In this document: piece by piece, positions 15,841-34,497 of the stretch | Layout: every line of letters starts with the position of its first letter | How positions within the stretch are numbered: the stretch's first letter is position 1 | Source: Minisyncoccota bacterium | GTDB taxonomy: Bacteria; Patescibacteriota; Minisyncoccia; Phycocordibacterales; UBA9973 | Assembly (NCBI GenBank): GCA_041664465.1 | Contig: JBAYKP010000002.1 | Span: 21,190 to 85,189 of the forward strand | DNA: 64,000 nucleotides | Direction of reading: 5' to 3' | Notes under the pieces: generated by a model | What the model was told of the DNA's origin: nothing | The model's input: only the letters and a program-made list of their open reading frames with translations | The model's database searches: none | Program-made: the position numbers and the translations under genes

Positions 15841-16539
15841 ATGCCAGAAACAAAAACAGAGAAAGAAACAATCGTGATATCGCTTGGGGGGTCTATTGTA
15901 GTACCGGATTTACCGAATGGAGAATTTGTAAAAGCTTTCAAAGAAATAATTTTACATTTTGTAGAAAAGGGTAAAAAGTTTGTAATAATCGTAGGTGGAG
16001 GCAAGACTTGCAGACGTTATAATGAAGCCTTAAGTAATGCCACAGAAGTTATCAATGAAGATCTGGATTGGCTTGGTATATATACTACTCGCCTCAATGC
16101 AGAACTTGTCAGACTTTCTTTTGGTAAAAAGGCGGCGGATAGAATTCTGATAGATCCAAGTATAATAAAAGATTTCAATGACGACGTCGTTATTGGTGCT
16201 GGGTGGAAGCCTGGGAATTCTACAGATGCAGTTGGGATTATGATTGCGAAGGAACTTGGTACAAAAAAGGTAGTTAATATTTCAAATATTGATTATATTT
16301 ATGATAGTGATCCGAAAATAAATGAGGATGCCAAGAAGTTTGAGAATATTTCATGGGCAGAATATCGTTCTTTTATATCTTCCGTTTGGAAGCCAGGTAT
16401 GAACACTCCTTTTGACCCTATTGCTTCAGAGAAAGCAGAGGAGGGAGGCATAGAAGTTGCTTTCATGTCAGGGCACAATCTAGAAAGTCTTGAGAATTAT
16501 CTAAAAGGAGAGCATTTTGTAGGAACAATCATAAAGTAA
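15841..16539 (+). CDS. pyrH: Amino-acid-kinase-fold protein, likely archaeal-type UMP kinase
   Basis: ISLGGSIV ... IIVGGGK pattern and 232 aa length. Function assigned by family resemblance only. Confidence 0.5.
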   Translation: MPETKTEKETIVISLGGSIVVPDLPNGEFVKAFKEIILHFVEKGKKFVIIVGGGKTCRRYNEALSNATEVINEDLDWLGIYTTRLNAELVRLSFGKKAADRILIDPSIIKDFNDDVVIGAGWKPGNSTDAVGIMIAKELGTKKVVNISNIDYIYDSDPKINEDAKKFENISWAEYRSFISSVWKPGMNTPFDPIASEKAEEGGIEVAFMSGHNLESLENYLKGEHFVGTIIK

Positions 16540-16547
16540 TTAGGAAT

Positions 16548-16586
16548 CACTGCCCCCAAGCAAGGCTTGGGGGCAGTGTGTATTTT
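16548..16586 (+). terminator. Strong terminator hairpin (13-bp stem cactgcccccaag/cttgggggcagtg + T-run)
   Basis: Read directly. Confidence 0.75.
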
Positions 16587-16601: not shown

Positions 16602-16607
16602 TATAAT
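16602..16607 (+). promoter_or_regulatory. -10 box (tataat) 6 nt before the ATG of Cys-rich paralog 1; leaderless candidate
   Basis: Motif and spacing. Confidence 0.4.
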
Positions 16608-16613: not shown

Positions 16614-18362
16614 ATGGAATCACAAACTAAAGTGTGTCAAAATTGTAAGCTTAATTTCACAATTGAGCCAGATGATTTTTCATTTTACGAAAAGATAAAA
16701 GTCCCTCCACCAACTTGGTGCCCTTATTGTAGGTTTATACGTAAAATGACATTTATTAACGAGCGTTCTCTTTATAAAAGAGTTTGTGATAATTGTAGTC
16801 AGTCTATGATATCTATGTATAGCCCTGATATACCACTTCCTGTTTGGTGCAATAAATGTCATATAAGTGATACTTGGGACGGAACTATATATAGTAGAGA
16901 TTATGATTTCTCTAGAAATTTTTTTGAACAATATAAAAAATTAAAATATGATGTTCCTCATAGGGCGCTTGATCAAAACGAGCGAAATGGCGAAGGGTGT
17001 GAGTATTCCAATCTATGTTACACCAGTAAAAACATATATTTATCTTTTAATATTATTGGTTCTGAAAATCTTAAGTATTCGGCACATGCTTTTAAGAATA
17101 ATAAAAATTGTTTAGATTCACTTATTTTTAAAAATAATGATAGGGGGTATGAGCTTGTTCAGGCTATTTCTAATTACAACTCATCTTTTTTAATTGAAAG
17201 TGACCAATGTGTAGATTCACATTTCCTTTATGATTGTTCTAATTGTGTTAATTGTTGTTTATCTTCAAATCTTCGAAATAAAAGTTATTTTTTTCAAAAT
17301 CAACAGTTATCGCGTGAAGAATATAAAAAGGCAGTTATGGCGCTTAGACTTGAGACATATTCTGGGCAATTAAATACTAAGAATATTTTTATGCAAATAG
17401 CAAAAGATGCAATTCATAAATACGCGCATATAAAGAATTCAGTAGATGTTATTGGAGATTTTATTGAAAATTCAAAAAATATTTACCATTGCTATGGTCT
17501 TGTAGATGCTATAAATACTAAATATGTATTTTTTGCAGTAAATACAATTGTAGATTCTCAAGATGTAATATTTGCAGGAAAAGTAGAGGAGTGCTATGAG
17601 TTTACTCTTGGTGGTAGGGGAGCTAGTCGTGTAATTTTATCTTTTAGTTGTTCTGGGGGGTGCAAGGATCTATTCTATTGTGATTCGTGTATGAGTTGTT
17701 CAGATTGTTTTGGCTGTGTAGGGTTAAAAAAGAAACAGTATTATATTTTTAATAAACAATATAAGAAGGAAGAGTATTTTGAAATGGTTAAGAAAATTAA
17801 ACAACACATGAATGATATGCCTTATATAGATAAGATTGGTAGAATATATAGCTTTGGGGAATGTTTCCCTACAGAACTTTCTCCTTTTGCTTACAATGAA
17901 ACTCTTGCTTTTAAAGAGAATTTTATCTCAAAAGAAGAAGTAATCTCTTTGGGATATAAATGGAAAGAAATGGAATCAAAGTTATATACTCCAACACTTA
18001 AAACAGATTCTGTGCCAGAGAGTATTAATGATGCTCTAGACACTATTTGTAATGAGATTATTGAGTGTCCCAATCAAGGCAAAGTAGATACACAATGCAC
18101 TTCAGCTTATAAAATATTACCAGATGAGTTAGCATTTTATAGACAAATGAATCTTCCAATACCTAGGTATTGTCCGAATTGTAGATATCACAATCGTTTA
18201 ATTTGGAAGAATCTTTTTCACTTTTACAAACGACAATGTATGTGTAATTCATCAAATCATAATCATAAAGGAAAATGTCAGAATGAATTTGAGACATTGT
18301 ATGCTCCCGACAGAGAAGAATTAATTTATTGTAAAGAATGTTATCAACAGGAAGTGTATTAA
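16614..18362 (+). CDS. Cysteine-rich paralog 1 (582 aa, about 37 Cys), unknown family. Has N- and C-terminal CPxCR zinc-ribbon-like modules and internal CxxCxxC clusters.
   Basis: Shares an N-terminal CQNCKxxFTIEPDDFSFYEKIKVPPPTWCPxCR block, a central KHMNDMPYIDKxGRIYxxGExFPxELSPFAYNET block and a C-terminal CQNEFETxYAPDRxExxYCxxCYQ block with the ORFs at 18401 and 29308. Confidence 0.7.
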   Translation: MESQTKVCQNCKLNFTIEPDDFSFYEKIKVPPPTWCPYCRFIRKMTFINERSLYKRVCDNCSQSMISMYSPDIPLPVWCNKCHISDTWDGTIYSRDYDFSRNFFEQYKKLKYDVPHRALDQNERNGEGCEYSNLCYTSKNIYLSFNIIGSENLKYSAHAFKNNKNCLDSLIFKNNDRGYELVQAISNYNSSFLIESDQCVDSHFLYDCSNCVNCCLSSNLRNKSYFFQNQQLSREEYKKAVMALRLETYSGQLNTKNIFMQIAKDAIHKYAHIKNSVDVIGDFIENSKNIYHCYGLVDAINTKYVFFAVNTIVDSQDVIFAGKVEECYEFTLGGRGASRVILSFSCSGGCKDLFYCDSCMSCSDCFGCVGLKKKQYYIFNKQYKKEEYFEMVKKIKQHMNDMPYIDKIGRIYSFGECFPTELSPFAYNETLAFKENFISKEEVISLGYKWKEMESKLYTPTLKTDSVPESINDALDTICNEIIECPNQGKVDTQCTSAYKILPDELAFYRQMNLPIPRYCPNCRYHNRLIWKNLFHFYKRQCMCNSSNHNHKGKCQNEFETLYAPDREELIYCKECYQQEVY

Positions 18363-18367
18363 TAGTC

Positions 18368-18390
18368 AGATAGGGGTTAAACCCCTATCT
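18368..18390 (+). terminator. Hairpin agataggggtt-aa-acccctatct (same 23-nt core recurs at 47713-47735); weak or no T-tract
   Basis: Read directly. Confidence 0.4.
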
Positions 18391-18400
18391 AGAGAATAGT

Positions 18401-20170
18401 ATGGATTATAAACCAGAAAATAGAATATGTCAGAATTGTAAGAAAGACTTCACTATTGAGCCAGACGATTTTTCATTTTATGAGAAGATGAAAGTCCCTC
18501 CGCCAACTTGGTGTCCTGAATGTCGTTTTCAAAGAAGGTGTCTTTTCCGTAACGAAAGAAAACTTTTCCGAAATATAGATGGAGTTACTGGTAAGCCAAT
18601 ATTTTCACTTTTTCCATTGGAGGCACATTTTCCAATTTATGAAGATAGTTATTGGGCAAGTGATAATTGGGACCCATTTTCTTATGGGATGGACTTTGAT
18701 AGGTCACGACCATTTTTAGCCCAACTCTTAGAGTTGAATTCAAAGGTACCACGTCCTCGCTCTGATGCTATAAATATGGTAAGAAGTGAATATTCTGCAA
18801 ATGCTGCAGACTTAAAAGATTGTTATTTGATTTTTAATTCAAGCTATACAGAAGATTCAGCATATGGAAATGCCAATGATTATTGCAAAAATTGCTTTGA
18901 TAATTCTCATATTCAAAATTCAGAGAAATGTTATGAATCATTTTGGCTTACTAAATGTTATGATACACATTTTTCTTCACAATGCGAGGATTGTGTTTCA
19001 GTTTGGTTTAGTAAAAATTGTCGTGGATGTACGGATTGTTTTGGCTGTGTAAACTTAACAAATAAATCTCATTGCTTTTTCAATCAATCTTTATCAAAAG
19101 AAGAATACAAAGAAAAGATAAAATCACTTGATTTTTCAAAATGGTCAAATCTCGAAAGAATAAAAAAACAAGTTGGAAAAATATGGTTGAATTTTCCTGT
19201 TAGATATCTTCAAGGTATTAAAAATTATTTATCTGATGGCGAATATGTTGCTTATTCAAAAAATGTTCGTCATAGCTACTTAGTTCGAGGGGGAGAAAAT
19301 CTTGCCTATGTGCAATATGTTCAAGTTCCATCATTAAAAGATTCTATGGATGTTATTGTGGGTGGTTGTAATAGTGAGTTAGTATATGAATCTTCAGCTT
19401 GTGGTTGGGATTCTTCACAAATTCGTTTTAGTATTGAGTGTTGGGACGGGGGAATGGATTTTGAATACAGTATGTTTTGTGGAAAGAAAGCCAGTCATAC
19501 ATTTGGTAGTATTAGTATTTGTAGTGGGGAATATGTTATTTTAAATAAAAGATATTCCAAAGAAGAATTTTATAAACTTAGAGATGAAATACGTAAGCAT
19601 ATGGATGAAATGCCATATATAGATAAAAATGGACGTATTTATAAATATGGCGAATTTCTTCCACCTGAGTTTTCCCCTTTTGCATACAACGATACGATAA
19701 CTCCGGAACATTTTCCTTTATCAAAAGAAGAAATAATCTCCTATGGTGCCAATTGGTATGAGATACCAAAAGTTGATTATGAAACAACAATGAAAGCCAA
19801 AGATATACAGGATGATATAAATGATGTATCGGAAGGTATTTTAAAAGAGATTATTTCTTGTGATAAATGTAATCGTGCTTATAGAATAATTCCTTCCGAA
19901 TTACAATTTTTAAAACAAAACCATATTCCAGTTCCTCGTAGTTGTGTGAATTGTCGTCATGATTTACGTATTTCACAAAGAAATAAAAGTAAACTGTATA
20001 AAAGAAAATGTAATTGTAATGGGAACAATTCAACAAATAATAAATATAAAAATGAAATCAGACATTCCCATGACACCGAAGCTTGCCAAAACGAATTTGA
20101 AACATCTTACTCCCCAGATAGACCAGAGATAGTGTATTGCGAAAAGTGCTATCAGCAAGAAATTTATTGA
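18401..20170 (+). CDS. Cysteine-rich paralog 2 (589 aa), same unknown family
   Basis: Conserved N-terminal, central and C-terminal blocks with 16614 and 29308. Confidence 0.7.
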   Translation: MDYKPENRICQNCKKDFTIEPDDFSFYEKMKVPPPTWCPECRFQRRCLFRNERKLFRNIDGVTGKPIFSLFPLEAHFPIYEDSYWASDNWDPFSYGMDFDRSRPFLAQLLELNSKVPRPRSDAINMVRSEYSANAADLKDCYLIFNSSYTEDSAYGNANDYCKNCFDNSHIQNSEKCYESFWLTKCYDTHFSSQCEDCVSVWFSKNCRGCTDCFGCVNLTNKSHCFFNQSLSKEEYKEKIKSLDFSKWSNLERIKKQVGKIWLNFPVRYLQGIKNYLSDGEYVAYSKNVRHSYLVRGGENLAYVQYVQVPSLKDSMDVIVGGCNSELVYESSACGWDSSQIRFSIECWDGGMDFEYSMFCGKKASHTFGSISICSGEYVILNKRYSKEEFYKLRDEIRKHMDEMPYIDKNGRIYKYGEFLPPEFSPFAYNDTITPEHFPLSKEEIISYGANWYEIPKVDYETTMKAKDIQDDINDVSEGILKEIISCDKCNRAYRIIPSELQFLKQNHIPVPRSCVNCRHDLRISQRNKSKLYKRKCNCNGNNSTNNKYKNEIRHSHDTEACQNEFETSYSPDRPEIVYCEKCYQQEIY

Positions 20171-20259
20171 TTGTTTGATTATATTGAGGTTTTGGGCTAG
20201 TATTGAAATATATGGCACCCCGAAGGAAAGATTACTTCCTACGGGGCAAGGTTATAAAT

Positions 20260-21024
20260 ATGAATATCATTATAAAGACAAAAGAACAAATAGAGATTAT
20301 ACGAGAAGGGGGGAAGATTTTGGCGGAGGTATTGAAGAAGGTGGCTAAAAAAGTATCTCCGGGGATTTCGACATACGAACTTGATAAATATGCGTACGAT
20401 TTGATAAAAGAGAAGAGTGGAATCCCAGCATTTTTGAATTACAGGCCAGAAGGTGCACCGAAAGCTTTTCCTGCTTCTATATGTATATCAGTGAATAATG
20501 AAGTTGTTCATGGTATTCCTAGTAAGAATAAAATTTTGAAAGAAGGAGATATTGTCTCTCTTGATTTAGGACTCAAATACAAAGGGCTCTTCACTGACCA
20601 TGCTGTGACTGTGCCCGTGGGGAAGATTTCAAAGAAGGACCAGGATTTGCTCGATAAGACGAAGAAAGCCCTAGAAATAGGCATTTGGGCAGCTCGTGGA
20701 GGGGCTACAGTGGGTGACGTTGGTCACGCCATAGAATCATTTGTGAATAGGAAATATGGCATAGTTCGCGAGCTTTCAGGGCATGGTGTAGGGGTGAAAA
20801 TTCACGAAGATCCATATGTGCCGAACTATGGTAAAGCTGGTAAAGGGCAGAAATTAATTCCAGGAATGATTATAGCCATTGAGCCAATGCTAAATATTGG
20901 AAAGGACAATATAACTGTTGCCAATGATGATTGGACTATTAAAACAGCCGATGGCTCTCATTCTGCTCATTTTGAGCATACGATTCTCATTACCGAAGGT
21001 GACGCGGAAATATTAACTAAGTAA
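20260..21024 (+). CDS. map: Methionine aminopeptidase type I
   Basis: Metal-ligand pattern (D..D..H..E..E) and typical MAP-I sequence. The ORF-track start at 20203 adds 19 non-conserved residues. Confidence 0.88.
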   Translation: MNIIIKTKEQIEIIREGGKILAEVLKKVAKKVSPGISTYELDKYAYDLIKEKSGIPAFLNYRPEGAPKAFPASICISVNNEVVHGIPSKNKILKEGDIVSLDLGLKYKGLFTDHAVTVPVGKISKKDQDLLDKTKKALEIGIWAARGGATVGDVGHAIESFVNRKYGIVRELSGHGVGVKIHEDPYVPNYGKAGKGQKLIPGMIIAIEPMLNIGKDNITVANDDWTIKTADGSHSAHFEHTILITEGDAEILTK

Positions 21025-21146
21025 AAACACTCCATAAAAACATTCTCAGACTCACCACACAATAAAATTCTGCTGAATTTTTTGCTCGCACTCGGCCCGT
21101 CGGCCTGCGTGAGGGTTCGCTTGAGAACATTTTTTATTTCGTGTTT
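21023..21146 (+). repeat. Palindromic repeat element copy A (about 124 bp, starts inside the map stop codon)
   Basis: About 97% identical to 61522-61644. The core matches 31957-32040 and 48461-48542. Terminal arms aaaaacattctcagactcacc / ggttcgcttgagaacattttt are inverted repeats. Confidence 0.8.
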
Positions 21147-21180
21147 AATTAGCCCATATAGATTTTTTAGAATAGTCTCT

Positions 21181-21260
21181 GAGAAGGGGCCGGCGCAGGC
21201 TGTCGAGCCGAGCAATGAGCAAATTTCTAGCAAGAAATTATGTGATTCACCAGAATCACC
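21181..21260 (-). repeat. Diverged inverted copy A' of the same repeat core (head-to-head with copy A)
   Basis: The reverse complement contains tgctcggctcgacagcctg, identical to the copy C core, and a homologous cacataatttcttgctagaaattt segment. Confidence 0.6.
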
Positions 21261-21337
21261 TAAGGGCAGAAATATTCAGGAGAGCTATTCAAAAAATCTA
21301 GATACCAACATTTATAGATCATTTTTTCTTTTTCTTG

Positions 21338-21346
21338 TGGTATAAT
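21338..21346 (+). promoter_or_regulatory. Extended -10 (tggtataat) 6 nt upstream of the ATG at 21353
   Basis: Motif and spacing. Confidence 0.45.
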
Positions 21347-21352
21347 AAAACT

Positions 21353-24085
21353 ATGGAAGGATTAAATCTAAACAATGCTCCTAAATTTAAAACCCCAGAA
21401 GAAGAGTTGGTATTTTTGCGTGCTCACTTGGCTGAACATGAGAAGAAACTCAATGAAAAAGGGCAAGAAGTAAACAAAGAAGATATTGCTCACAATTTAA
21501 TCTCTGAATATAGAAAGCTTGAGCCGACAGATGTAATGCATAAAAGTGCCGTGATAAATAAAAATGAAGCTGAAGGCTTAGTCTTGCGATTAAAGCCTGA
21601 GAATCACGACAGTAAAATGGAAGAGCTTCTCGGTATTCTCTTGGATAAAGGTATTTCCAATACTCTTTCCATTGTGGCGAAGATGAATAATCCTCACCTA
21701 GATGATGACTTTCACCGTTTCCTTGTCCAGTATTTATACAGTACTCATAAAGTGCCGGGGCTTAAAGAAGGCACTCCTCTTTTCAAATCTCTTGATATGA
21801 AACTTTTCGAAATTACTCTGCCTGATGTCAGCGAAGATGATAAAGACAAGAAAGGTTTGAAAGAATTACTCTCTGCCATGGAGCAATTCTATGCTGGTAT
21901 GCATTCAGTCGGAGAAGGAAGAGAGAATTATAATAGAAATCATTTTACTTTAGAGATTGCCCTCGCTGAAGGGACGGACAGCTTCATCTTTTATGTCGCA
22001 GTACCTACTCACAAGGCAGAATTATTTGAAAAGCAATTACTTGGAGTTCATTTAAATGCGAAAATTACAGAAGTTCCTGATGATTATAATATTTTCTCTC
22101 CCAATGCATTTATCAGTGCCTCTTATGCAACCTTGGCTCATCACGAAGTCTATCCGATAAAGCTCTATGATACGATTGATCATGATCCACTCAATATAAT
22201 TCTAAATGTTTTCACTAAATTAAAAAAGCATGGAGAAGGTGCTTCTATTCAGTTCACTATTTGTCCGGAAGATGAAGATATTATCAGGAAGTTTCATATT
22301 ATCCATTCGGATGTGAAAAGTGGTATGTCTGTACGTACCGCTTCGAGTATGACTCGCCAAGTGACCAAGGAATTGAAAAATATAGCCAGCGAATTATTCT
22401 TCGGAGCTTCTAAAAAGAAAGAAGAGAAGCAAGTGAATGATAAAGCTGTGGAATATATTGGAGAGAAGTTGAAGAGTACCATAATGGCTACCAATATTCG
22501 TATCATCGCTTCAGCTGAATCGCAATTACGCTCAGAGCAAATATTATCTGAAATAGAATCTTCTTTCAATCAATTCACCGAAGCCGATCGCAATGGGTTT
22601 AACTTTAATCATCCTAAGGGGGGCTCACTTATGAATCTCATTCACGATTTTTCTTATAGAACATTTTCAGATGATTATTCTATGCCACTTAATCTTAAGG
22701 AGCTTGCTACTATTTTCCACTTTCCGAATAGCATTGTATCTTCACAGCTCAAGCAGGCTAAGGCCGGCTTTGCCCCAGCCCCACTTGAAATGGGCAATGA
22801 AGGAATTCTACTTGGTATCAATAGTTTCAGGGGCAAAGATACAGAGGTACGAATGAGTCGCGAAGACAGACTCCGTCATATGTATGTCATTGGTCAGACG
22901 GGTACAGGTAAGACGACAATATTGAAAAATATGATTGCCCAAGATATCAAGAATGGCGATGGCTGTTGCTTTATCGATCCACACGGTAGTGATATCCAGG
23001 ATATACTTTCTTATGTGCCCAAAGAAAGAATTGACGATGTCATTTACTTTGACCCTGCTTATACTGCTCGTCCGATGGGGCTTAATATGCTCGAGTATGA
23101 TCCGAAATATCCCGAGCAGAAGACTTTCGTCGTGAACGAATTGATGAGTATTTTCAATAAACTTTTTACGAAAGAATCTATGGGCCCTATGTTTGAGCAA
23201 TATTTTAAGAATAGTGCCTTCCTGGCAATGGATGATCCGAACAATCATGCCACTCTTCTAGACATCACTCGCATCTTAGGCAATAAAGAGTATAGAGATT
23301 CACTTTGTGAAAAATGTAAGAATCCTATTATCAAAGAATTTTGGGTTAATGCTGAGAAAACAACAGGGGACCAATCCATCGCCAACTTTGTACCATATAT
23401 TTCATCCAAATTTGATAACTTTATTTCCAACGATATAATGCGCCCTGTTGTTCTCCAAGAAAAATCTTCATTTAACTTCCGTGAAATAATGGACAATAAA
23501 AAGATTCTTCTGATAAACCTTTCAAAGGGAAGACTTGGAGATATCAATGCTAATCTCATTGGGCTTCTACTTGTGGGGAAGATTCAGATGGCAGCACTTT
23601 CTCGTGTAGATATGTATGGGCAAAAGATGAATGACTTCTATCTTTATATTGATGAATTCCAGAATGTGACGACTGATTCTATTGCCTCTATTCTTTCTGA
23701 GGCACGTAAGTATCGCTTGTCCTTAACTGTTGCTCACCAATATATTTCTCAGCTAGAAGAAAAAATAAAGGATGCTGTCTTCGGCAACGTCGGCTCGATG
23801 GCTGTCTATCGTATCAGCTCTGAAGATGCAGTCGCCGTAGAACCGAAATTCAAACCAACTTTCACCGCAGCGGATATTATGAAGCTTGATAATTTCAATT
23901 CATATGTGAGTATGCTTATAGGTGGAGTACCGACGAAGCCTTTCAGTATGACTTCCCATTGGAGTCTCACTCCCAAAGGCAACACTGAGATAGTAGATAA
24001 AATAAAAGAATTATCATATCTCAAATACGGCCGTCTCCGCGAAGAGGTAGAAGAGGAAATAATGAATAAATACAGAAAAGAATAA
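21353..24085 (+). CDS. VirB4/VirD4-superfamily (type IV secretion-type) P-loop ATPase with a roughly 480 aa N-terminal domain of unknown function
   Basis: Walker A GQTGTGKTT followed by IDPHGS, Walker B LYIDEF and a C-terminal AHQYISQL motif, all typical of TraC/VirB4/TraG-like ATPases. No N-terminal TM segment. The ORF-track TTG start at 21335 is replaced by the ATG at 21353. Confidence 0.55.
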   Translation: MEGLNLNNAPKFKTPEEELVFLRAHLAEHEKKLNEKGQEVNKEDIAHNLISEYRKLEPTDVMHKSAVINKNEAEGLVLRLKPENHDSKMEELLGILLDKGISNTLSIVAKMNNPHLDDDFHRFLVQYLYSTHKVPGLKEGTPLFKSLDMKLFEITLPDVSEDDKDKKGLKELLSAMEQFYAGMHSVGEGRENYNRNHFTLEIALAEGTDSFIFYVAVPTHKAELFEKQLLGVHLNAKITEVPDDYNIFSPNAFISASYATLAHHEVYPIKLYDTIDHDPLNIILNVFTKLKKHGEGASIQFTICPEDEDIIRKFHIIHSDVKSGMSVRTASSMTRQVTKELKNIASELFFGASKKKEEKQVNDKAVEYIGEKLKSTIMATNIRIIASAESQLRSEQILSEIESSFNQFTEADRNGFNFNHPKGGSLMNLIHDFSYRTFSDDYSMPLNLKELATIFHFPNSIVSSQLKQAKAGFAPAPLEMGNEGILLGINSFRGKDTEVRMSREDRLRHMYVIGQTGTGKTTILKNMIAQDIKNGDGCCFIDPHGSDIQDILSYVPKERIDDVIYFDPAYTARPMGLNMLEYDPKYPEQKTFVVNELMSIFNKLFTKESMGPMFEQYFKNSAFLAMDDPNNHATLLDITRILGNKEYRDSLCEKCKNPIIKEFWVNAEKTTGDQSIANFVPYISSKFDNFISNDIMRPVVLQEKSSFNFREIMDNKKILLINLSKGRLGDINANLIGLLLVGKIQMAALSRVDMYGQKMNDFYLYIDEFQNVTTDSIASILSEARKYRLSLTVAHQYISQLEEKIKDAVFGNVGSMAVYRISSEDAVAVEPKFKPTFTAADIMKLDNFNSYVSMLIGGVPTKPFSMTSHWSLTPKGNTEIVDKIKELSYLKYGRLREEVEEEIMNKYRKE

Positions 24086-24155
24086 AATTTTGCATTTGTT
24101 TTATTAGATTAAATCTGCTATTATGCTAGTAATTTATTAGATTATTTTTTTATAT

Positions 24156-24740
24156 ATGAAACATCCAAAAGAAGAAAGAACATACGTGATGATTAAGCCT
24201 GATGGGGTCAGAAAGGGTTTAATTGGAGAGGTTATTAAGCGTTTTGAGCAACGTGATTTGAAAATTGTGGCTCTTGAAATGTCTCAACCATTATACGACC
24301 AAATGGATAATCACTATCCTAAAAAAGAAGAATGGGTTACTCGTTTGGGAGAAAAAACTAAAAATACATACGAAAAATATGGATATGATTTATTTGCAGA
24401 TTTTGGGACAGATGATACTTCAAAGATTGGACCAGAAGTTCGCAAATGGGTTATTGATTTTATGATGAGTGCTCCCGTTGTGAAGATGATTGTTCAAGGG
24501 ATACACGCTGTTGACGTAGTTCGTAAAATTGCCGGTGATACAATGCCTTACAAAGCCGATATGGGTACGCTTCGTGGAGATTTCTCAATAGACTCTCCTG
24601 CACTTGCAAACAAAGAAAAAAGAGCAGTTATGAATATAGTTCATTGTTCTGAGACACCAGAAGAAGCCGAGCACGAGATAAAGCACTGGTTTGGGGATTC
24701 TGTGATTTATAATTATAAACGTTTTGGAGTAGACGAATAG
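24156..24740 (+). CDS. ndk: Nucleoside diphosphate kinase (long form with about 50 aa insertion)
   Basis: TYVMIKPDGV ... RGDF ... NIVHCSE, with an active-site His. Confidence 0.8.
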   Translation: MKHPKEERTYVMIKPDGVRKGLIGEVIKRFEQRDLKIVALEMSQPLYDQMDNHYPKKEEWVTRLGEKTKNTYEKYGYDLFADFGTDDTSKIGPEVRKWVIDFMMSAPVVKMIVQGIHAVDVVRKIAGDTMPYKADMGTLRGDFSIDSPALANKEKRAVMNIVHCSETPEEAEHEIKHWFGDSVIYNYKRFGVDE

Positions 24741-24747
24741 TTTCCTA

Positions 24748-24775
24748 ATAAAATCCCTTAAAAAGGGATTTTATG
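24748..24775 (+). terminator. Terminator (aaatccctt-aaaa-agggattt + T-run)
   Basis: Read directly. Confidence 0.6.
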
Positions 24776-24794
24776 TTATATTGAAAACATCAGT

Positions 24795-25445
24795 ATGAAA
24801 AATATTATAGATATATACAAAGAATATAAAATAATGCCGAATTTAGCGGTACATCAGTTTCGAGTAGCGGCTGTGGCTTGGCAAATTTGCGAATCTTTCA
24901 ACATAGATGTAGATAAGGATAGTATTGTCAAAGCCTGTCTTCTTCATGATATGGGTAATATCATTAAGTTTAATTTAATTCAGACACAAGCACTTTTTGG
25001 ATTATCCGATTTAGAAATACAAGATGCAATTATAGTACAAAATGAATTTATTCAAAAATATGGTAAGAGCGAACATGAAGCCACTGTGCTTATAGGCAGA
25101 GAGCTTGGTGTTTCTTCATATGTTTTAGAACTTATAGATTGTGTTGATTCATCTAACTTGGAAATTTTAGCAATGAAAGATGATTTTAATAAGAAAATTT
25201 GTATGTATGCAGATGGCAGGGTGACTCCACACGGAGTAGTCTCTATAAATGAGAGAAGTAGAGAAGCCAAAGAAAGATATCAGAATCATCCTAATAAATT
25301 TGATGAAGAAAGTAGATTACATTTCAACAAAAATTTAGGCAGAATGGAGCAGCAGATCTTTTCTCATTCAAAAATTAAACCCGAAGACATAAATGATGAA
25401 TCTATAAAAAATTATTTAGAAAAATTGCAAAATTATTCAATTTAG
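24795..25445 (+). CDS. HD-domain phosphohydrolase
   Basis: H ... LLHDMGN metal-binding motifs. Confidence 0.55.
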   Translation: MKNIIDIYKEYKIMPNLAVHQFRVAAVAWQICESFNIDVDKDSIVKACLLHDMGNIIKFNLIQTQALFGLSDLEIQDAIIVQNEFIQKYGKSEHEATVLIGRELGVSSYVLELIDCVDSSNLEILAMKDDFNKKICMYADGRVTPHGVVSINERSREAKERYQNHPNKFDEESRLHFNKNLGRMEQQIFSHSKIKPEDINDESIKNYLEKLQNYSI

Positions 25446-25726
25446 ATTAAGTATCTTTATTGAAATACTGTCAAAAGTGTGTTTTATTGGGAAAGTTGCT
25501 TGCTTTGGCCTCACTAACGCGTATACTTTAAGTAGGGTTATTTGAATTGTGTTACCTAGAACAATTTTTTAGGGGATTAAATAGTTTTGATATAGTGCTG
25601 TATACGTATTATGTTAACAAATCTCTATCATCCTTAATCCCACTTAGCGTTATGCTATGGTAATATACTTCGGATAGTCCTAATAAGAGATTCTTTCATA
25701 CTTTTGAAAGGATTTTTTGTTTTGAA

Positions 25727-25817
25727 TTCCTCCCCTCCTTACTAAGGAGGGGAATGAGGGGAGGTTCTTAATTAATTTACCTCTCCCCAGCCCTCCCCTT
25801 AGTAAGGGGAGGGGGAA
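25727..25817. other. GC-rich nested hairpins (cctcccctcc-ttactaa-ggagggg ...; ccctcccc-ttagtaa-ggggaggg) in an AT-rich spacer
   Basis: Read directly. Similar CCTCCCC/GGGGAGG hairpins occur at 2097-2116. Confidence 0.35.
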
Positions 25818-25859
25818 AATTCCATTTTAGTTTTTTATTATGTTATAATAAAAATATAT

Positions 25860-27230
25860 ATGGAGAATGATACGAAACTGAAAGTTACATTTTGTTCTGG
25901 CGCTGGGACTGTTACAGGTGCCAACTTTTTAATAGAGGGTAATGGCAAGAAATTCTTAGTAGATTGCGGGCTTATCCAAGGAGAAAAAGTGGCAGATGAT
26001 ATCAACTGGGAGAAATTTCCTTATGAAGCATCTTCCATAGATATTCTATTTATCACTCACGGGCATATAGATCATATTGGCAGAATCCCGAAGCTTATCG
26101 CTGAAGGTTTCAATGGCAAGATTATATCTACCATTCCCACGAAAGAGATTACAGAAGTAATGCTTGCGGACACAGCGCATTTACTTTCTCGTGATACGGA
26201 TCACAATTTGGCAGAGATTTATTCAGAAGAGAATATTAATAAAGCAATCGGTCTATGGGAGACTCTTGAATATGGGCAGAAGCTCAATGTGGATCACGGC
26301 TTTCAATTTTCTTATAAAGATTCAGGCCACATATTAGGGTCTGGGATGCTTGAGATTATCTATAATAACAAGAAAATTATTTTCACTGGTGACTTGGGGA
26401 ATTCACCTTCACCACTTCTTCGTGATACAGAGAAGATAGCCAATGTGGATTATCTTTTTATGGAATCTTGCTATGGAGATAGGAATCATGAAGATCGTGA
26501 TACAAGGAAAAATAAATTACAAGAAATTATTAAAGAAAATTATGAAAGAAAGGGTACTCTTATTATCCCGACTTTTTCTTTGGAACGTACACAAGAATTA
26601 CTTTATGAGATAGATACTTTGATTGAGAATAAATTAATTCCACAGATGCCCATATTCCTTGACTCACCACTCGCCATAAAGCTCACGGCCATTTATCGCA
26701 AATATGAGAAATATTTCAATCCGACAGCTTTGAAAATTATAAAAGGTGGAGATGACATTTTTAATTTCCTTGGACTTAGGATGACGAATGAGACCGAAGA
26801 ATCGAAAGCAATATTAAATGTCCCAGATCCCAAGATTATTATGGCAGGTAGCGGGATGAGTAATGGAGGCAGAATCCTTCATCATGAGAAGAATTATCTT
26901 CCACATGCCAATAATACTATTCTACTTATTGGATATCAGTCCGTGGGGACATTGGGTCGCTCTATAGAGAATGGAGTGAAAGATGTCCGTATTATGGGAG
27001 AGGATATACATATTAAAGCTCATTTAGAAATGATAAGTGGCTATTCTGGGCATAAAGATTCCGACCATCTTGTGGAATTCGTAGAAGAGACTGCCAATAC
27101 GGTCAAAAAGGTATTTTTACTTATGGGAGAACCCAAGGCTTCAATGTTCTTGGCTCAGAAGCTAACAGATAATTTAGGTATAGATGCTTATACACCAACA
27201 AGTGGGGAATCTGTCGAAATAGAGTGCTAA
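25860..27230 (+). CDS. Metallo-beta-lactamase / beta-CASP family ribonuclease (RNase J-like)
   Basis: HGHIDHIG (HxHxDH) motif, 456 aa, beta-CASP-like C-terminus. Confidence 0.6.
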   Translation: MENDTKLKVTFCSGAGTVTGANFLIEGNGKKFLVDCGLIQGEKVADDINWEKFPYEASSIDILFITHGHIDHIGRIPKLIAEGFNGKIISTIPTKEITEVMLADTAHLLSRDTDHNLAEIYSEENINKAIGLWETLEYGQKLNVDHGFQFSYKDSGHILGSGMLEIIYNNKKIIFTGDLGNSPSPLLRDTEKIANVDYLFMESCYGDRNHEDRDTRKNKLQEIIKENYERKGTLIIPTFSLERTQELLYEIDTLIENKLIPQMPIFLDSPLAIKLTAIYRKYEKYFNPTALKIIKGGDDIFNFLGLRMTNETEESKAILNVPDPKIIMAGSGMSNGGRILHHEKNYLPHANNTILLIGYQSVGTLGRSIENGVKDVRIMGEDIHIKAHLEMISGYSGHKDSDHLVEFVEETANTVKKVFLLMGEPKASMFLAQKLTDNLGIDAYTPTSGESVEIEC

Positions 27231-27234
27231 ATAA

Positions 27235-27262
27235 AAAACCTTCACAATTGTGAAGGTTTTTT
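27235..27262. terminator. Bidirectional terminator (aaccttcacaa-ttgtgaaggtt flanked by A and T runs) between convergent genes
   Basis: Read directly. Confidence 0.7.
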
Positions 27263-27264
27263 AT

Positions 27265-27606
27265 TTATATGCTTTTTACGATTCTTGCGAATGTCTCAGG
27301 ATTATTTTGGGCGATATCTGATAGAATTTTGCGGTCTATATCAATCTTCTTTTTCTTAAGACCATCTATGAATCTACTGTATGATAATTCAAATGGTCTA
27401 ATAGCAGCATTGATACGTGTAGTCCAAAGGCTTCTTGCATCTGCCTTCTTATCCTTTCTGTGAGCGAATGAATATGCTCCTGCATGGCGTAATGCATCTT
27501 TAGCTTGGGCTTTCTTTGTACTACGACCAAAACGGAATCCTTTAGCTTGGGCTAGGATATTCTTTCTGTGTTTATTCTTTATTGTTCCTCTTTTAACTCT
27601 TGTCAT
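27265..27606 (-). CDS. rplT: 50S ribosomal protein L20
   Basis: MTRVKRGTIKNKHRKNIL ... typical L20. Confidence 0.95.
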   Translation of the reverse strand: MTRVKRGTIKNKHRKNILAQAKGFRFGRSTKKAQAKDALRHAGAYSFAHRKDKKADARSLWTTRINAAIRPFELSYSRFIDGLKKKKIDIDRKILSDIAQNNPETFARIVKSI

Positions 27607-27650
27607 ATATGTTTGTCCATAGGTCGGACCTATGGTCGATAATTTATAAT

Positions 27651-27842
27651 TTATGCGTTTGCTAAATAAGTTCGTCTATTTTTATTTGAAATTTTGAAAT
27701 TATTTGTTTTCTTACCAGCTAATTGCTTTGTACGTGATTGCTTGGCATTGAAGTGGTTGAATCCTGGTGCACGAGATAAGATTTTACCATTCTTTGTAAC
27801 CTTTAAACGCTTTGTTAATGATTTGTTTGTTTTTATACTCAT
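27651..27842 (-). CDS. rpmI: 50S ribosomal protein L35
   Basis: 63 aa, basic, typical L35. Confidence 0.88.
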   Translation of the reverse strand: MSIKTNKSLTKRLKVTKNGKILSRAPGFNHFNAKQSRTKQLAGKKTNNFKISNKNRRTYLANA

Positions 27843-27847
27843 AAAAT

Positions 27848-28354
27848 TTACTTTTCTTTTTCTATTGTAATAGTTGGACCTTTGGGACCTTTTCTATAAT
27901 CTTCTGCTACTTTATAATTCTCAGTTATAAGGTGAAGTATTCGGTCGAGTCTTTCTCTCAAGAATGCATCGGCCATATATTTAGAACGTCCCGAAAGGAA
28001 AAGCTCTATCTTAATACGGTGACCTTCTTTGAGCCACTCTGAAGCTTTTCTGGCTTTCAAAGCGAGGTCATTCTCTCCAGTACCAATCTTTATTTGCACA
28101 GATTTGGTTTCTGTAGTTTTAGCTCCTGCTTTCGCCTTCTTCAACTTCTTATTTTGCTCATATTGATACTTACCAAAATTTGCTATTTTAACTATTGGGG
28201 GATTTGCATTGGGAGTGATTTCAATCAAATCAAAGCCTTGTTGATTGGCCATTGCGAATGCATCTTTAAAACTTAAAATACCAAGGTTTACACCTTCGTT
28301 TGAGATTACGCGAACCTCAGATGCTCGTATTTGATTGTTTATTCTTTCTCTCAA
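27848..28354 (-). CDS. infC: Translation initiation factor IF-3
   Basis: IF3 N- and C-domain motifs, and infC-rpmI-rplT order. Confidence 0.9.
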   Translation of the reverse strand: MRERINNQIRASEVRVISNEGVNLGILSFKDAFAMANQQGFDLIEITPNANPPIVKIANFGKYQYEQNKKLKKAKAGAKTTETKSVQIKIGTGENDLALKARKASEWLKEGHRIKIELFLSGRSKYMADAFLRERLDRILHLITENYKVAEDYRKGPKGPTITIEKEK

Positions 28355-28430
28355 TTTGTTTGCCGATAGAAATAAATAGATTACCTACCTAAATAGAATA
28401 CTAGCATATTTGTGTTATTATGGCAATACG

Positions 28431-29231
28431 ATGGATAACGTTATAAAAGTATATAAAAAGGTAGGTGAGACGCCTCTAGATTGCATTCAAAATCTCAAAA
28501 AAGATAGGCCAGAACTGGGCCTTTTACCTATGACTTATGCAGGACGGCTTGATCCGTTAGCAGAAGGGGTGCTTTTACTCCTTGTAGGTGAGGAATGTAA
28601 GAAGAAAGATGAATATCTTAATCTACACAAAGAGTATGAGGTAGAAGTTCTCTTTGGTTTCGCGACGGATACATATGATGTATTGGGAAAAGTCACTCCG
28701 TCGGAAATACTATTTAAAAGGTCCAGGGACCTGGGGGACGGGAGCCGGTGCCAGACCATTTCAAATCGCTCATCCTTTGACTTCGTTTTGCCTCTAAAGA
28801 AGATCCTTCCAAATTTTATTGGCAAGATAAAACAATCATATCCACCGTATTCTTCTCGTCCAGTAAATGGCAAGCCGTTGTTTATGTGGGCGAGGGAAGG
28901 GAAGCTAGGTGAGATAGAGATACCTACGCACAATGTGCAAATAGATAATATAGAAATAATGGGGCAAGATTTTATAAAAGGAAATGAACTTTTGGAAAAT
29001 ATTAAAGATAAAATTTCAAAAGTGAAAGGTGATTTTAGACAAGAAGAAATATTAAAAACTTGGGAGAAAGAATTGAAAGACAAAAAAGAAGAAAAATATC
29101 CTATAATTAAATTAAGAATTTCTTGTGGCAGTGGGGCCTATATGCGAAGTATTGCCAATGACATAGGGGAGAAGCTAAGCATCCCCGCTCTTGCCCTCAA
29201 AATAGTCCGCACAAAAGTAGGAGATTACTAA
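28431..29231 (+). CDS. truB: tRNA pseudouridine synthase (TruB family) with an internal GC-rich insertion
   Basis: YAGRLDPLAEGVLLLLVGE motif. The ATG at 28431 is preferred. Confidence 0.65.
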   Translation: MDNVIKVYKKVGETPLDCIQNLKKDRPELGLLPMTYAGRLDPLAEGVLLLLVGEECKKKDEYLNLHKEYEVEVLFGFATDTYDVLGKVTPSEILFKRSRDLGDGSRCQTISNRSSFDFVLPLKKILPNFIGKIKQSYPPYSSRPVNGKPLFMWAREGKLGEIEIPTHNVQIDNIEIMGQDFIKGNELLENIKDKISKVKGDFRQEEILKTWEKELKDKKEEKYPIIKLRISCGSGAYMRSIANDIGEKLSIPALALKIVRTKVGDY

Positions 29232-29234
29232 ATT

Positions 29235-29279
29235 CCCCAGAACTTACGCTATAGCGTAAGTTCTGGGGAATTTGTTTTT
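29235..29279 (+). terminator. Terminator (15-bp stem ccccagaacttacgc-tata-gcgtaagttctgggg + T-run)
   Basis: Read directly. Confidence 0.8.
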
Positions 29280-29293
29280 AGGGGTATTTAATA

Positions 29294-29299
29294 TATAAT
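29294..29299 (+). promoter_or_regulatory. -10 box (tataat) 8 nt before the ATG of paralog 3
   Basis: Motif and spacing. Confidence 0.35.
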
Positions 29300-29307
29300 T
29301 TAATCAT

Positions 29308-31029
29308 ATGAAAAGTGAGACGAAAAACTGCCAGAATTGCAAAAAAGACTTTACTATTGAGCCAGATGATTTTTCTTTTTATGAGAAAATAAAAGTCCCT
29401 CCGCCAACCTTTTGCTCGGAATGTAGAATGATACGAAGGATGATTTGGAGAAATGAGAGGTCTTTTTATCATCGTAATTGTGATTTGTGTGGAGAAAAGA
29501 TAATTTCAGTTTTTGATGATAAAAATTTGAAAATTTATTGCCAGAATTGTTGGCTTAGTGATAAATGGGAATCTTTGGAATATGGAGTAAATTATGATTT
29601 CTCCGCATCATTTTTTTCTCAGTATTCAGGTTTATATAAAAATATACCACTAATAAATTTAAATGGGCATATTTCAAATAAAAACTCACCGTATGTAAAT
29701 TATATTGTTCAGGCTAATAATTGCTATTTTTGTTTTGGTGGAGGATATATAGAAAATGTTATGTTTTCTAATGTTGGGGTAAGAATAAAAGATTCAATGG
29801 AAATATTTTTCTCAATGGATTGTGAATTTTGTTATGAAATATTAAATTGTCAGAAATGTTATCGTATTTATTATGGAAATAATTTGAAAGACTGCATGGA
29901 TAGTTATTTTTTGCAGGACTGCGTGAATTGTAAGGACTGTATCATGTCCTGTAATTTAAGGAATAAATCTTATTGTTTTAAAAATCAACAATTAACTAAA
30001 GAAAAGTTTTTGGTCAAAAAAGAAGAATTTTTAAATAAACTACAGAAAAATATTTATTCTCTTAAAAATGAATTTAAGGAAGTATTGATTAAAAGTCCTA
30101 AAAAATTTGCCAATATTTTGAAATCAGAATTTTCTACAGGTGATAATATCTCTGAAAGTTCACGAGTGGTAAATAGTTTTAATATTTCTAAGAGTGAAAA
30201 TTGTAAAAATTCACAAGATATAGTTGGAGTTGCTCGTGATATCTACGATACAACAAGTGCTGGGTTAGGACTGGAAAATATGTATGAATCAATGTCTGTA
30301 AGTATGAATATTTTGAATTCATTTTTTTCTTTATCAATAAGAAATGATTCTTTTAATATAAATTATTCTTTTGGGTTAACTTCATGTTCCAACTGCTTCG
30401 CCTGCATCGGTCTCCGCTCCAAACAATACTGCATCCTCAACCGCCAATACACCAAAGAAGAATACGAGAGCCTTGTCCCCAAAATCATAAAGCATATGAA
30501 CGACATGCCCTATATAGATAGTAAAGGTAGAATCTACAAATACGGTGAATTCTTCCCAAGTGAACTCTCACCCTTTGCCTACAACGAAACCATAGCCCAA
30601 GAATACTTCCCATTAACAAAGGATGAAGCTCTACAACAAGGCTACAAATGGAAAGACAAGGAAGAACGTAACTACAGTATAGATATACATACAGAAAACA
30701 TCCCAGATTCCATTAAAGACATACCTGATACAGATATCCTAAACAAAGTCATAGAATGTAACCATAAAGGAACCTGTAATCAACAATGTACAGAAGCCTA
30801 TAAGATTATACCCGAAGAACTATCCTTCTACAGACGTATGAATTTACCTCTACCTCGTCTCTGTCCTAACTGTAGACACTATGAACGTCTTTCTCAACGA
30901 AACCCTATGAAATTATGGCATAGAGCCTGTATGAAGCCTGGATGTACCAATGAATTTGAGACATCTTATGCTCCAGAGAGACCGGAGATTGTTTATTGTG
31001 AGAAGTGTTATCAGGGGGAGGTGTATTAA
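29308..31029 (+). CDS. Cysteine-rich paralog 3 (573 aa), same unknown family as 16614 and 18401
   Basis: Same N-terminal, central and C-terminal conserved blocks. Confidence 0.7.
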   Translation: MKSETKNCQNCKKDFTIEPDDFSFYEKIKVPPPTFCSECRMIRRMIWRNERSFYHRNCDLCGEKIISVFDDKNLKIYCQNCWLSDKWESLEYGVNYDFSASFFSQYSGLYKNIPLINLNGHISNKNSPYVNYIVQANNCYFCFGGGYIENVMFSNVGVRIKDSMEIFFSMDCEFCYEILNCQKCYRIYYGNNLKDCMDSYFLQDCVNCKDCIMSCNLRNKSYCFKNQQLTKEKFLVKKEEFLNKLQKNIYSLKNEFKEVLIKSPKKFANILKSEFSTGDNISESSRVVNSFNISKSENCKNSQDIVGVARDIYDTTSAGLGLENMYESMSVSMNILNSFFSLSIRNDSFNINYSFGLTSCSNCFACIGLRSKQYCILNRQYTKEEYESLVPKIIKHMNDMPYIDSKGRIYKYGEFFPSELSPFAYNETIAQEYFPLTKDEALQQGYKWKDKEERNYSIDIHTENIPDSIKDIPDTDILNKVIECNHKGTCNQQCTEAYKIIPEELSFYRRMNLPLPRLCPNCRHYERLSQRNPMKLWHRACMKPGCTNEFETSYAPERPEIVYCEKCYQGEVY

Positions 31030-32526: not shown

Positions 32527-32952
32527 TTATTGAAAACTAATTTCAAATGGATACATTCCCATACCGCAGGAGCCGTTTAGGGTGCCGGCTGGTTGTGTAC
32601 TGAGGTCTATATCTGTACTTCCTGATTGTGGGAGACTTTTAAAGATATTCATAGAAGGAATTCTGACAGAAGAAGAGCAATCAAAAGTTCCATTTGTGTT
32701 AAATCTTAAAATTGTAGGAATTCCTGCCTTTGCAATACTTTTCCTTGGTTGGTAACCACCTTTAGCATTTATCTCTATAATTTGTTTACCATCTACTACC
32801 GAAACATTCTTTATAGAAGTTTCTTGTGTTGTTCCAGTACTATTATTACTAGAATCATTTGATTGATTACTTGTTTTTCCACTCGTAAGAACAATAGCAA
32901 ATATAATTAATGCCGCTGATACTACTATTGAGATGATTGTGTTTTTTGTCAT
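32527..32952 (-). CDS. Cupredoxin-like domain membrane-anchored protein
   Basis: C-terminal GSCGMGMYPFEI resembles the cupredoxin-like Y-x-C-x3-H/x-x2-M motif. Paralog of 44140-44499. Confidence 0.45.
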   Translation of the reverse strand: MTKNTIISIVVSAALIIFAIVLTSGKTSNQSNDSSNNSTGTTQETSIKNVSVVDGKQIIEINAKGGYQPRKSIAKAGIPTILRFNTNGTFDCSSSVRIPSMNIFKSLPQSGSTDIDLSTQPAGTLNGSCGMGMYPFEISFQ

Positions 32953-32953
32953 T

Positions 32954-34015: not shown

Positions 34016-34061
34016 AAAAAAATACCTTTTACAATTAAGTATTTATCTACATAAAATATTA

Positions 34062-34086
34062 TATACCCCCTAGGGGTATATGTCAA
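34062..34086 (-). promoter_or_regulatory. CsoR-type operator palindrome (tatacccc-cta-ggggtata) lying between ttgaca (-35) and an AT-rich -10 on the minus strand
   Basis: Near-identical palindromes at 34782-34806 and 44792-44818. Resembles the published Bacillus CsoR operator (TACCC...GGGGTA). Confidence 0.6.
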
Positions 34087-34088
34087 TA

Positions 34089-34472: not shown

Positions 34473-34497
34473 AAATTTTTATATATTAAACTAATAA

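Follow-up and report, generated by a model that had tools for sequence, protein, structure and literature searches.

An undescribed family of cysteine-rich proteins with predicted zinc modules around a duplicated beta-solenoid in Paceibacteria

Inside the conserved secY-adk-map segment of a Minisyncoccota bacterium (GenBank assembly GCA_041664465.1, contig JBAYKP010000002.1) two large cysteine-rich proteins are encoded one after the other, and the locus raises the question of what these proteins are. We analyzed a 64,000-nucleotide (nt) stretch of this contig (positions 21,190 to 85,189 of the forward strand), hereafter the window, whose own coordinates are used throughout. An initial annotation had described a tandem pair of paralogous open reading frames, ORF1 and ORF2, of 582 and 589 amino acids (aa), that share three conserved blocks. 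Two full-length paralogs were borne out by the ORF list and by BLASTP, in which they align end to end with 39% identity (E 1e-130); they carry 36 (6.2%) and 31 (5.3%) cysteines, respectively, and contain the three blocks as well as the cysteine clusters YCDSCMSCSDCFGC and DCSNCVNCC. Two adjacent paralogs are thus real, but the word pair falls short, as the window holds a third copy and relatives carry arrays of up to 10. We conclude that the three copies represent an undescribed family, which is new as a protein family and in its domain architecture; the parts from which its members are built (treble clefs, ribbons and a beta-solenoid) are known fold classes. The copies are listed with their scores against the family profile and, for the pair, with their confident AlphaFold2 (AF2) models, rated by predicted local distance difference test (pLDDT) and predicted template modeling score (pTM).

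16614..18362, + strand: ORF1, family member 1; 853 bits; pLDDT 84.6, pTM 0.85
18401..20170, + strand: ORF2, family member 2; 950 bits; pLDDT 89.1, pTM 0.87
29308..31029, + strand: third family member, 573 aa with 34 cysteines; 673 bits

The third copy shares 43% identity with ORF1 and 40% with ORF2. Homologs numbered at least 4,784 for ORF1 and at least 3,801 for ORF2, all of them labelled hypothetical protein, and came from Candidatus Paceibacterota as well as, among other groups, from Nomura-, Jorgensen-, Lipton-, Sung-, Giovannoni- and Staskawiczbacteria; compared with ORF1, ORF2 is the ortholog type with the wider conservation. A profile search of 1.84 billion representatives returned 5,048 clusters (50% identity) at E up to 1e-3 and 2,165 at 1e-30. 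Given these thousands of homologs and the purifying selection acting on them, ORF1 and ORF2 are, judged by their sequences, real genes far beyond chance. Among the species representatives of GTDB at least 553 relatives were found, all with Patescibacteria titles except for one metagenome-assembled genome (MAG) labelled Gammaproteobacteria, and the family appears to be restricted to Paceibacteria-type members of the Patescibacteria, or candidate phyla radiation (CPR). Locus L066 (CAYJLM010000079.1; we number the loci under study with an L), from a MAG titled "uncultured Gammaproteobacteria bacterium", carries two members in tandem, and mis-binning or mislabelling is the more likely explanation than a true member outside the Patescibacteria. 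A generic title, "uncultured Candidatus Saccharibacteria", is attached to many further loci, which come from co-assembly projects.

Are these genes passengers in the ribosomal operon? The region between 17 and 20 kb has a guanine plus cytosine (GC) content of 0.29-0.33, below the 0.38-0.40 of the ribosomal genes, the copies have independent promoters and terminators, and a neighbouring ATPase resembles conjugation proteins, as could be expected if mobile-element, phage or defence-island cargo, or spurious or decaying genes, had been inserted there by chance. However, low GC is common to many segments of the window, no integrase or repeats were seen, IMG/VR viral contigs, phage records and plasmid records yielded no relative of the family, and PADLOC models compared with all three window copies at E up to 0.1 matched 0 families. 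Moreover, intact full-length orthologs are 57-87% identical across several candidate phyla, and synteny is kept in relatives. The mobile-element idea is in our opinion effectively refuted, and the passenger explanation as a whole is hardly credible.

In other genomes, profile search of the fetched loci found up to 8-10 full-length copies arrayed within 20 kb. The best identity to another copy of the same locus had a median of 44% and a maximum of 61%, while the best match in another genome had a median of 61%, and in 96% of cases the match from a foreign genome was closer than the own neighbour. With neighbouring copies at most 61% identical, recent tandem amplification was ruled out; on these identities, the copies are old, conserved paralogs, of which 3 to at least 10 are kept per genome.

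The architecture was derived from the AF2 models (built on family alignments), from a 205-member alignment, which underlies the conservation values given below, and from profile-profile comparisons. It had been asked whether the cysteine clusters would form zinc ribbons or a beta-helix, and both guesses were right: treble-clef and ribbon modules make up the termini, with a beta-solenoid in between. The modelled layout is pseudo-symmetric, with a treble clef and a CxxC-x17-CxxC ribbon at each end, and a duplicated solenoid followed by an acidic domain between them. In ORF1 the parts are the following.

16614..16763, + strand (ORF1 1-50): basic N-terminal treble-clef zinc module, zf_Tbcl-like, with C8/C11/C36/C39; PF13451 at 15.4 bits
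16764..16883, + strand (ORF1 51-90): CxxC-x17-CxxC ribbon, zf_Tbcl_2-like, with C58/C61/C79/C82; hhalign 96.9% to the zinc finger of VirD4-like ATPases described below
16971..17759, + strand (ORF1 120-382): duplicated beta-solenoid, made of half A, a helical hairpin and half B
17817..18059, + strand (ORF1 402-482): acidic domain with MPYIDK.GR.Y.YGEFFP.E.SPFAYN, by alignment and charge
18060..18359, + strand (ORF1 483-582): second, very basic treble clef and terminal Cys4 ribbon, by conservation and profile comparison

In the numbering of ORF2, used for all residues below unless ORF1 is named, residues 1-55 form the basic treble clef, whose C10/C13/C38/C41 are 97-99% conserved, and residues 56-90 the ribbon region, in which CxxC-x17-CxxC is found in about half of the members, intact in ORF1 and degenerate or lost in ORF2; a helical linker joins it to the first solenoid half. 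The two halves (residues 119-262 and 263-402) are homologous, with an hhalign probability of 99.9% (E 2e-37), and each ends in a Cys-rich coil and a cap, L(R/K)NK.Y.I.N..YSKEEY, followed by a helix. The acidic domain with its GEFFP.E.SPFAYN motif (residues 403-482) has a net charge of about -6. Residues 483-533 are the second treble clef; a second FY...P.P..CP.CR module had been noticed near the C-terminus, and this module is indeed present and homologous to the N-terminal one (hhalign 99.4%, E 3e-21). The terminal ribbon (residues 534-589) keeps C537/C562/C580/C583 in 98-99% of members, and the Arg that follows the second CxxC is conserved in both treble clefs (R42 98%, R519 100%). Three of the Cys4 sites are near-universal and the fourth, a ribbon, is optional; all of these modules probably bind zinc. 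Net charges are +3 and +7 for the zinc modules, the latter in the second treble clef, the remainder being acidic and the overall isoelectric point (pI) about 6.3.

In half A of the solenoid the cysteine frequency is strictly 3-residue periodic, with Cys or small residues at every third position. Strands recur every 6 residues and cysteines every 3, 9 or 12, and this strand spacing implies a narrow solenoid with coils of ~12 residues. In the CxxCxxCxxC coil that closes half A, C207/C210/C213/C216 are 79-96% conserved; C370 (93%) and C379 (87%) are comparable, and D167, D317 and Q108 are invariant. Positions conserved in at least 95% of the members are Cys, Gly, Pro, Asn caps, aromatics and the CxxC-Arg, among which no obvious catalytic set seems to stand out.

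That no known family could be assigned has held up in every library in which a whole-protein match to a characterised family was sought. Scans of the whole proteins against Pfam, NCBIfam, PHROGs and PADLOC gave only sub-threshold zinc-finger matches; sequence searches of the PDB with a single sequence, a 60-sequence profile and an N-module profile gave no match; Foldseek with the whole-chain ORF2 model against PDB and BFVD gave none at E up to 1e-3; and a full-text literature search found no paper on the family, on PF13451 or on PF23477. Against PF13451 zf_Tbcl (cutoff 24) the N-modules of 6 members scored 15.4-23.8 bits over model positions 4-44 of 48, and 12 of 60 members matched (best E 3.5e-4), which is consistent yet below threshold. 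PF23477 zf_Tbcl_2 (cutoff 27) reached 12-17 bits at the second ribbon of ORF1 and at the C-termini of both ORFs, and TIGR04272 CxxC-x17-CxxC (cutoff 36) 11.3 bits at ORF1 51-83, where the spacing is identical; ORF2 lacks the four cysteines. When bona fide PF23477 fingers of ATPases were compared with the family by hhalign, the N-terminal ribbon reached 96.9% (E 1.6e-10) and the C-terminal one only 55% (E 1.2e-4). Both zf_Tbcl and zf_Tbcl_2 are described in Pfam as "probable treble clef" and are themselves of unknown function. The profile DnaJ_CXXCXGXG, which does match a true neighbouring DnaJ, found no match in the family, whose motif is CxxCxxCFGC.

A hint as to what the proteins do comes from the way the parts diverge. 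Between orthologs both solenoid halves have identities of 0.60-0.63, on par with the rest of the protein, whereas between paralogs of the same locus they drop to 0.33-0.35 and are the most diverged regions. The ratio of paralog to ortholog identity is 0.83-0.87 for the N module and the C ribbon and 0.56 for both solenoid halves; the N-terminal treble clef, the helix 381-402 and the C-terminal ribbon are conserved among orthologs and paralogs alike. No transmembrane (TM) segment or signal peptide was predicted in 216 of 217 full-length members, which together with the Cys4 zinc modules argues for an intracellular location. Based on the constant, basic zinc ends, the diverged solenoids and the lack of a catalytic signature, we tentatively read the family as an intracellular set of adaptors or scaffolds, possibly working with a VirD4-like ATPase, an explanation that we prefer while holding it far from certain and whose partners and role are presumed. 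The conserved zinc ends would dock onto one common partner, either nucleic acid or the finger-bearing ATPase or both, and the solenoid faces would be paralog-specific, each copy binding a ligand of its own, since the solenoids are conserved within ortholog groups and differ between paralogs. Binding is favored over catalysis because no catalytic constellation was seen.

The ATPase in question, a more informative neighbour than the secY-adk-map flanks, is encoded in the window directly after map and was absent from the initial annotation.

21335..24085, + strand: 916-aa soluble VirD4/TraG/HerA-like P-loop ATPase with an N-terminal extension, by library scan

In L091, the closest relative of this locus, the N-terminal half of the orthologous ATPase carries the precomputed label DUF8128. 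Across 85 family loci VirD4-like ATPase genes were the most recurrent neighbour (48 genes in 32 loci, 38%), and in 22 of the 85 no more than 600 bp separate such a gene from a family gene. The ATPase also appears to share its ribbon type with the family, which makes it a candidate partner: all 7 long-form ATPases tested have a bona fide PF23477 finger, at 48-54 bits. In these long forms the finger (CS.CGK.T.VPF.P..GRPVYCK.C) sits right after the ATPase core, and the long low-complexity Pro/Lys/Glu tail behind it ends in a conserved ...EVPEDVLRKILE or ...PGE.VKF peptide, which could be a docking motif. The long-form ATPases with the finger are:

L016:2854-4983
L013:2514-4814
L051:678-3176
L085:6779-9031
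L035:1041-3098
L092:579-2777
L083:14560-16440

As a reciprocal control, metagenome contigs were scanned with the ATPase alignment, and 80 ATPase-centred loci were obtained. The usual cassette runs secD, secF, a protein with Sigma70_r4 and HARE-HTH, a TM protein of the DUF8128 type, in some cases a small TM protein, and the ATPase; it was seen in L013, L017, L037 and L041 and in 43 of the 80 loci (L094-L173). Its TM protein, of ~450 aa with an N-terminal membrane anchor, has no Pfam match and by eye is like the DUF8128-labelled N-half of the long ATPases; in the window, that N-terminal domain and the ATPase are fused in the one 916-aa protein. A further gene, CutA1 (PF03091), stands between a short VirD4-like ATPase and the first family gene in 11 loci (L013, L037, L041, L051, L053, L059, L069, L070, L074, L083 and L085), a placement suggestively in keeping with the high zinc load predicted for the family.

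Several observations weigh against the adaptor explanation, and above all against its ATPase part. A family gene is present in only 10 of the 80 ATPase-centred loci (~13%), although in 9 of these 10 no more than 500 bp separate the two, and the zinc finger of the ATPase occurs equally where no family gene is near. In most CPR the ATPase therefore works without the family: an obligate coupling is weakened by the reciprocal scan, and the family, if functionally linked at all, would be a lineage-specific accessory of the ATPase module. The adjacency may also be lineage-specific synteny; the loci are phylogenetically non-independent, and gene order is weak evidence in streamlined, co-directional genomes. 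The three window copies are predicted separate transcription units and not operon partners of the ATPase. The adaptor model draws on gene order and on patterns of conservation; the AF2 models are least confident (59-77) precisely in the Cys-rich coils, and the CxxCxxCxxC coil together with C370/C379 could be a redox or Fe-S site, that is, one for chemistry and not for binding.

This last point leads to metalloenzymes or redox proteins, in which the coil, together with C370 and C379, would serve as the site of an Fe-S cluster or catalytic metal and the substrates would differ by paralog. The high conservation of the coil cysteines and the invariance of D167, D317 and Q108 would suit such a site, the poor AF2 confidence at the coils is as expected of a cofactor-dependent fold, and CutA1, a protein of divalent-ion tolerance, stands between ATPase and array in the 11 loci named. 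Yet ORF2 lacks most of the cysteines of the second-half cluster, cysteines on a 3-residue ladder are typical of a narrow solenoid core, and the invariant polar residues occupy equivalent positions in both repeats, which suggests structural caps. No Fe-S or enzyme family matched either, LdpA staying at 14.9 bits against a cutoff of 450. We consider an enzymatic role unlikely.

A different use of the ATPase neighbourhood would be export. Patescibacteria have been reported to carry 5,713 VirD4-like genes in 2,918 genomes, only 148 of them near virB4, and exaptation of these orphan homologs of type IV coupling proteins (T4CPs) was raised as a possibility (Quinonero-Coronel et al. 2025, PMC12102498). 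The family proteins might then be cargo that the VirD4-like ATPase and its DUF8128 membrane partner, whose gene lies beside secDF, pass to export, ending as surface proteins or adhesins of an episymbiont with a Cys-ladder beta-solenoid. Family genes do adjoin T4CP-like ATPases, the secD-secF-HTH (helix-turn-helix)-DUF8128(TM)-ATPase cassette supports an export context, and the solenoid is like secreted beta-helical adhesins and antifreeze proteins with Cys ladders. On the other hand, four Cys4 zinc modules and the lack of a signal peptide point to the cytosol, the paralogs evolve slowly, unlike surface or effector arrays, most ATPase loci are without such cargo genes, and the window ATPase is itself soluble; exported cargo is thus quite improbable to us. 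We would give equally little credit to the boldest version of the ATPase link, in which a CPR-specific machine would have the paralogs as its clients or adaptors; this machine would be formed by the orphan VirD4-like ATPases (long ones with zf_Tbcl_2, and short ones) and the DUF8128 membrane protein beside secDF and would act as an ATP-driven translocation or assembly pathway, each paralog being exported to the surface or host interface or selecting a different cargo.

The position of the genes bears on yet another reading. The initial annotation had placed the pair between an adk/UMP-kinase segment and map. These flanks were confirmed: upstream come rplF, rplR, rpsE, rplO, secY, adk and an archaeal-type pyrH, and map follows downstream. 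The order secY-adk-pyrH-family-map recurs in L091, with three copies, and in L028, and it is shifted in Giovannonibacteria (L004) to secY-family-adk-map. It is no property of the family, though, because other members lie at unrelated positions (between ftsW and murG in the dcw cluster, after uvrC, after tpi-pgk, between dnaK and dnaJ); the secY-adk-map position was rejected as defining the family and is a lineage-level arrangement. In the window, the third copy follows a truB-like gene and has infC and rplT as neighbours, and family neighbours in other loci include the genes of L21, L27 and S20, gltX and cysS. DnaK, DnaJ, CysS, AI-2E and L21 were set aside as partners: they form one conserved synteny block of related lineages, which is weak evidence.

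So many translation genes around the copies, in the ribosomal operon and elsewhere, would agree with housekeeping nucleic-acid-binding factors (chaperones or assembly factors of RNA, ribosome or tRNA) that act independently of the ATPase, with one RNA or DNA substrate per paralog. Nucleic-acid binders typically carry basic modules of the treble-clef and ribbon kind, the paralogs are conserved, non-redundant and of old age, and most ATPase loci do without the family. Nevertheless, the overall pI of about 6.3 and the acidic bulk of the protein speak against such factors, as do the heterogeneous neighbourhoods, the separate transcription units predicted for the genes and the lack of likeness to known RNA- or DNA-binding domains beyond generic zinc fingers. 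We regard this explanation as possible but somewhat doubtful, and keep the adaptor or scaffold reading, in which nucleic acid may also be the common partner, as our tentative preference.

The prediction of separate transcription units comes from the signals around the copies.

16548..16578, + strand: 14-bp GC-rich hairpin followed by a U-rich tract, terminator-like (-31.4 kcal/mol, z -5.1)
16602..16607, + strand: perfect TATAAT -10 box, 6 nt before the ATG of ORF1, without a Shine-Dalgarno motif (sequence inspection)
18366..18393, + strand: hairpin between ORF1 and ORF2, without a U tract (-16.2 kcal/mol, z -4.5)
29232..29271, + strand: 18-bp hairpin followed by UUUGUUUUU, terminator-like, before the third copy (-31.3 kcal/mol, z -7.25)
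29294..29299, + strand: perfect TATAAT, 8 nt before the ATG of the third copy (sequence inspection)

For the hairpin between pyrH and ORF1, none of 200 shuffles was equally good. A hairpin and a -10 box had been claimed before each gene of the pair; both hairpins exist and the box of ORF1 is perfect, but the candidate box of ORF2, AATAGT, matches at only 4 of 6 positions and abuts the ATG, and the hairpin before it has no U tract. With its TATAAT 6 nt from the ATG and no Shine-Dalgarno motif, the ORF1 transcript would be leaderless or near-leaderless. Similar starts are found all over the window: at least 12 genes have a perfect TATAAT 6-10 nt before the start codon, for example those at 2151, 3365(-), 9678(-), 9932(-), 15240, 16614, 25860, 29308, 53941, 56583, 57175 and 58659, strong hairpins sit directly before these promoters, and Shine-Dalgarno-like motifs were seen at 1 of 74 gene starts. 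These counts suggest leaderless or near-leaderless mRNAs and initiation independent of Shine-Dalgarno motifs in the source organism.

Other genes around the pair deserve mention. The UMP kinase (15841-16539, + strand) is of the archaeal type, with 176 bits to TIGR02076 pyrH_arch (cutoff 158) as against 43 bits to the bacterial TIGR02075. Downstream of the pair lies map.

20260..21024, + strand: map, methionine aminopeptidase (the L091 ortholog has 255 aa)

Its true start is probably this ATG at 20260 (MNIIIKTKEQ...) and not the TTG at 20203 of the ORF list; TATAAAT and an imperfect hairpin (20218-20246) lie upstream of the ATG. From 21025 to 29300 the usual post-map series infA-rpmJ-rpsM-rpsK-rpsD-rpoA-rplQ is missing, and the ATPase is found there instead, followed by a likely nucleoside-diphosphate kinase (judged by its N-terminal sequence only), by genes with counterparts in L091 that carry HD-domain and beta-CASP/metallo-beta-lactamase labels, and then by rplT and infC on the opposite strand. 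Further on, at ~32950-44140 on the minus strand, small membrane proteins, two MxCxSC starts of the heavy-metal-associated type and a 744-aa probable P-type ATPase were recognized by eye, and the block looks like a candidate metal-handling island.

The ultra-small Paceibacteria (Parcubacteria) belong to the most abundant bacteria of groundwater and to those least understood; their genomes are below 1 Mb, and most biosynthesis has been shed from them. Even so, a protein of ~580 residues is kept in 3 to at least 10 old copies, and a single array can comprise as much as about 15 kb of family genes; an array of that length is estimated, from typical Paceibacteria genome sizes, at about 1-2% of the genome. 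The retention of so many old, conserved copies in reduced genomes argues that the function of the family must be central to the biology of Paceibacteria. Whether it defines a new kind of system hinges on that function. If the machine described above were real, it would be a previously unrecognised ATP-driven translocation or assembly pathway of these bacteria. In any case, the family is a confident structural target by its AF2 models and a handle on thousands of orphan VirD4-like ATPases (PMC12102498).

How does the family compare with known systems? The window ATPase and the ATPases that flank the arrays belong to the orphan VirD4-like T4CP homologs of PMC12102498, a paper that contains no description of the Cys-rich family, which itself is no ATPase, of the zf_Tbcl_2 finger on the ATPase or of the DUF8128 partner. 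With PF13451 zf_Tbcl the family shares two CxxC pairs ~24 residues apart with an Arg after the second, and its N- and C-modules align over nearly the whole model, C..C...F.I...D..FY...P.P..C..CR. Unlike members of zf_Tbcl, zf_Tbcl_2 and TIGR04272, the family stays below the curated cutoffs, and these domains would cover less than 30% of the protein, leaving the solenoid and the acidic domain unexplained.

The solenoid resembles, at the level of fold class, the ryegrass ice-binding protein (3ult) and the Tenebrio antifreeze protein (1ezg), and further likenesses of this kind are to left-handed beta-helix acyltransferases, gamma-carbonic anhydrases, the heads of the YadA and UspA1 adhesins and phi29 gp12. 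Only ~100 of the 589 residues of ORF2 align with such short-coil solenoid structures in Foldseek, at 3-14% identity and none of them significantly. Unlike the known short-coil solenoids, that of the family is duplicated, set between zinc modules and free of a signal peptide; secreted antifreeze and ice-binding proteins differ by their secretion signal, and the solenoid is only a part of the family protein. From the left-handed beta-helix (hexapeptide-repeat) acyltransferases and gamma-carbonic anhydrases, with their coils of 18 residues, the family is set apart by the absence of a Hexapep match and of any sign of a trimeric acyltransferase active site, by its coils of ~12 residues and by the lack of a significant structural match over the whole domain. 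By analogy, the paralogs may finally be likened to ancient sets of paralogs that share an architecture and serve as subunits of hetero-oligomers or as specific adaptors, for example the subunits of CCT: there is no homology, and the copy number of the family varies from 1 to at least 10 per locus, but several old, co-linear paralogs of equal length have been retained in very small genomes, with their presumed docking parts conserved and their surfaces diverged.

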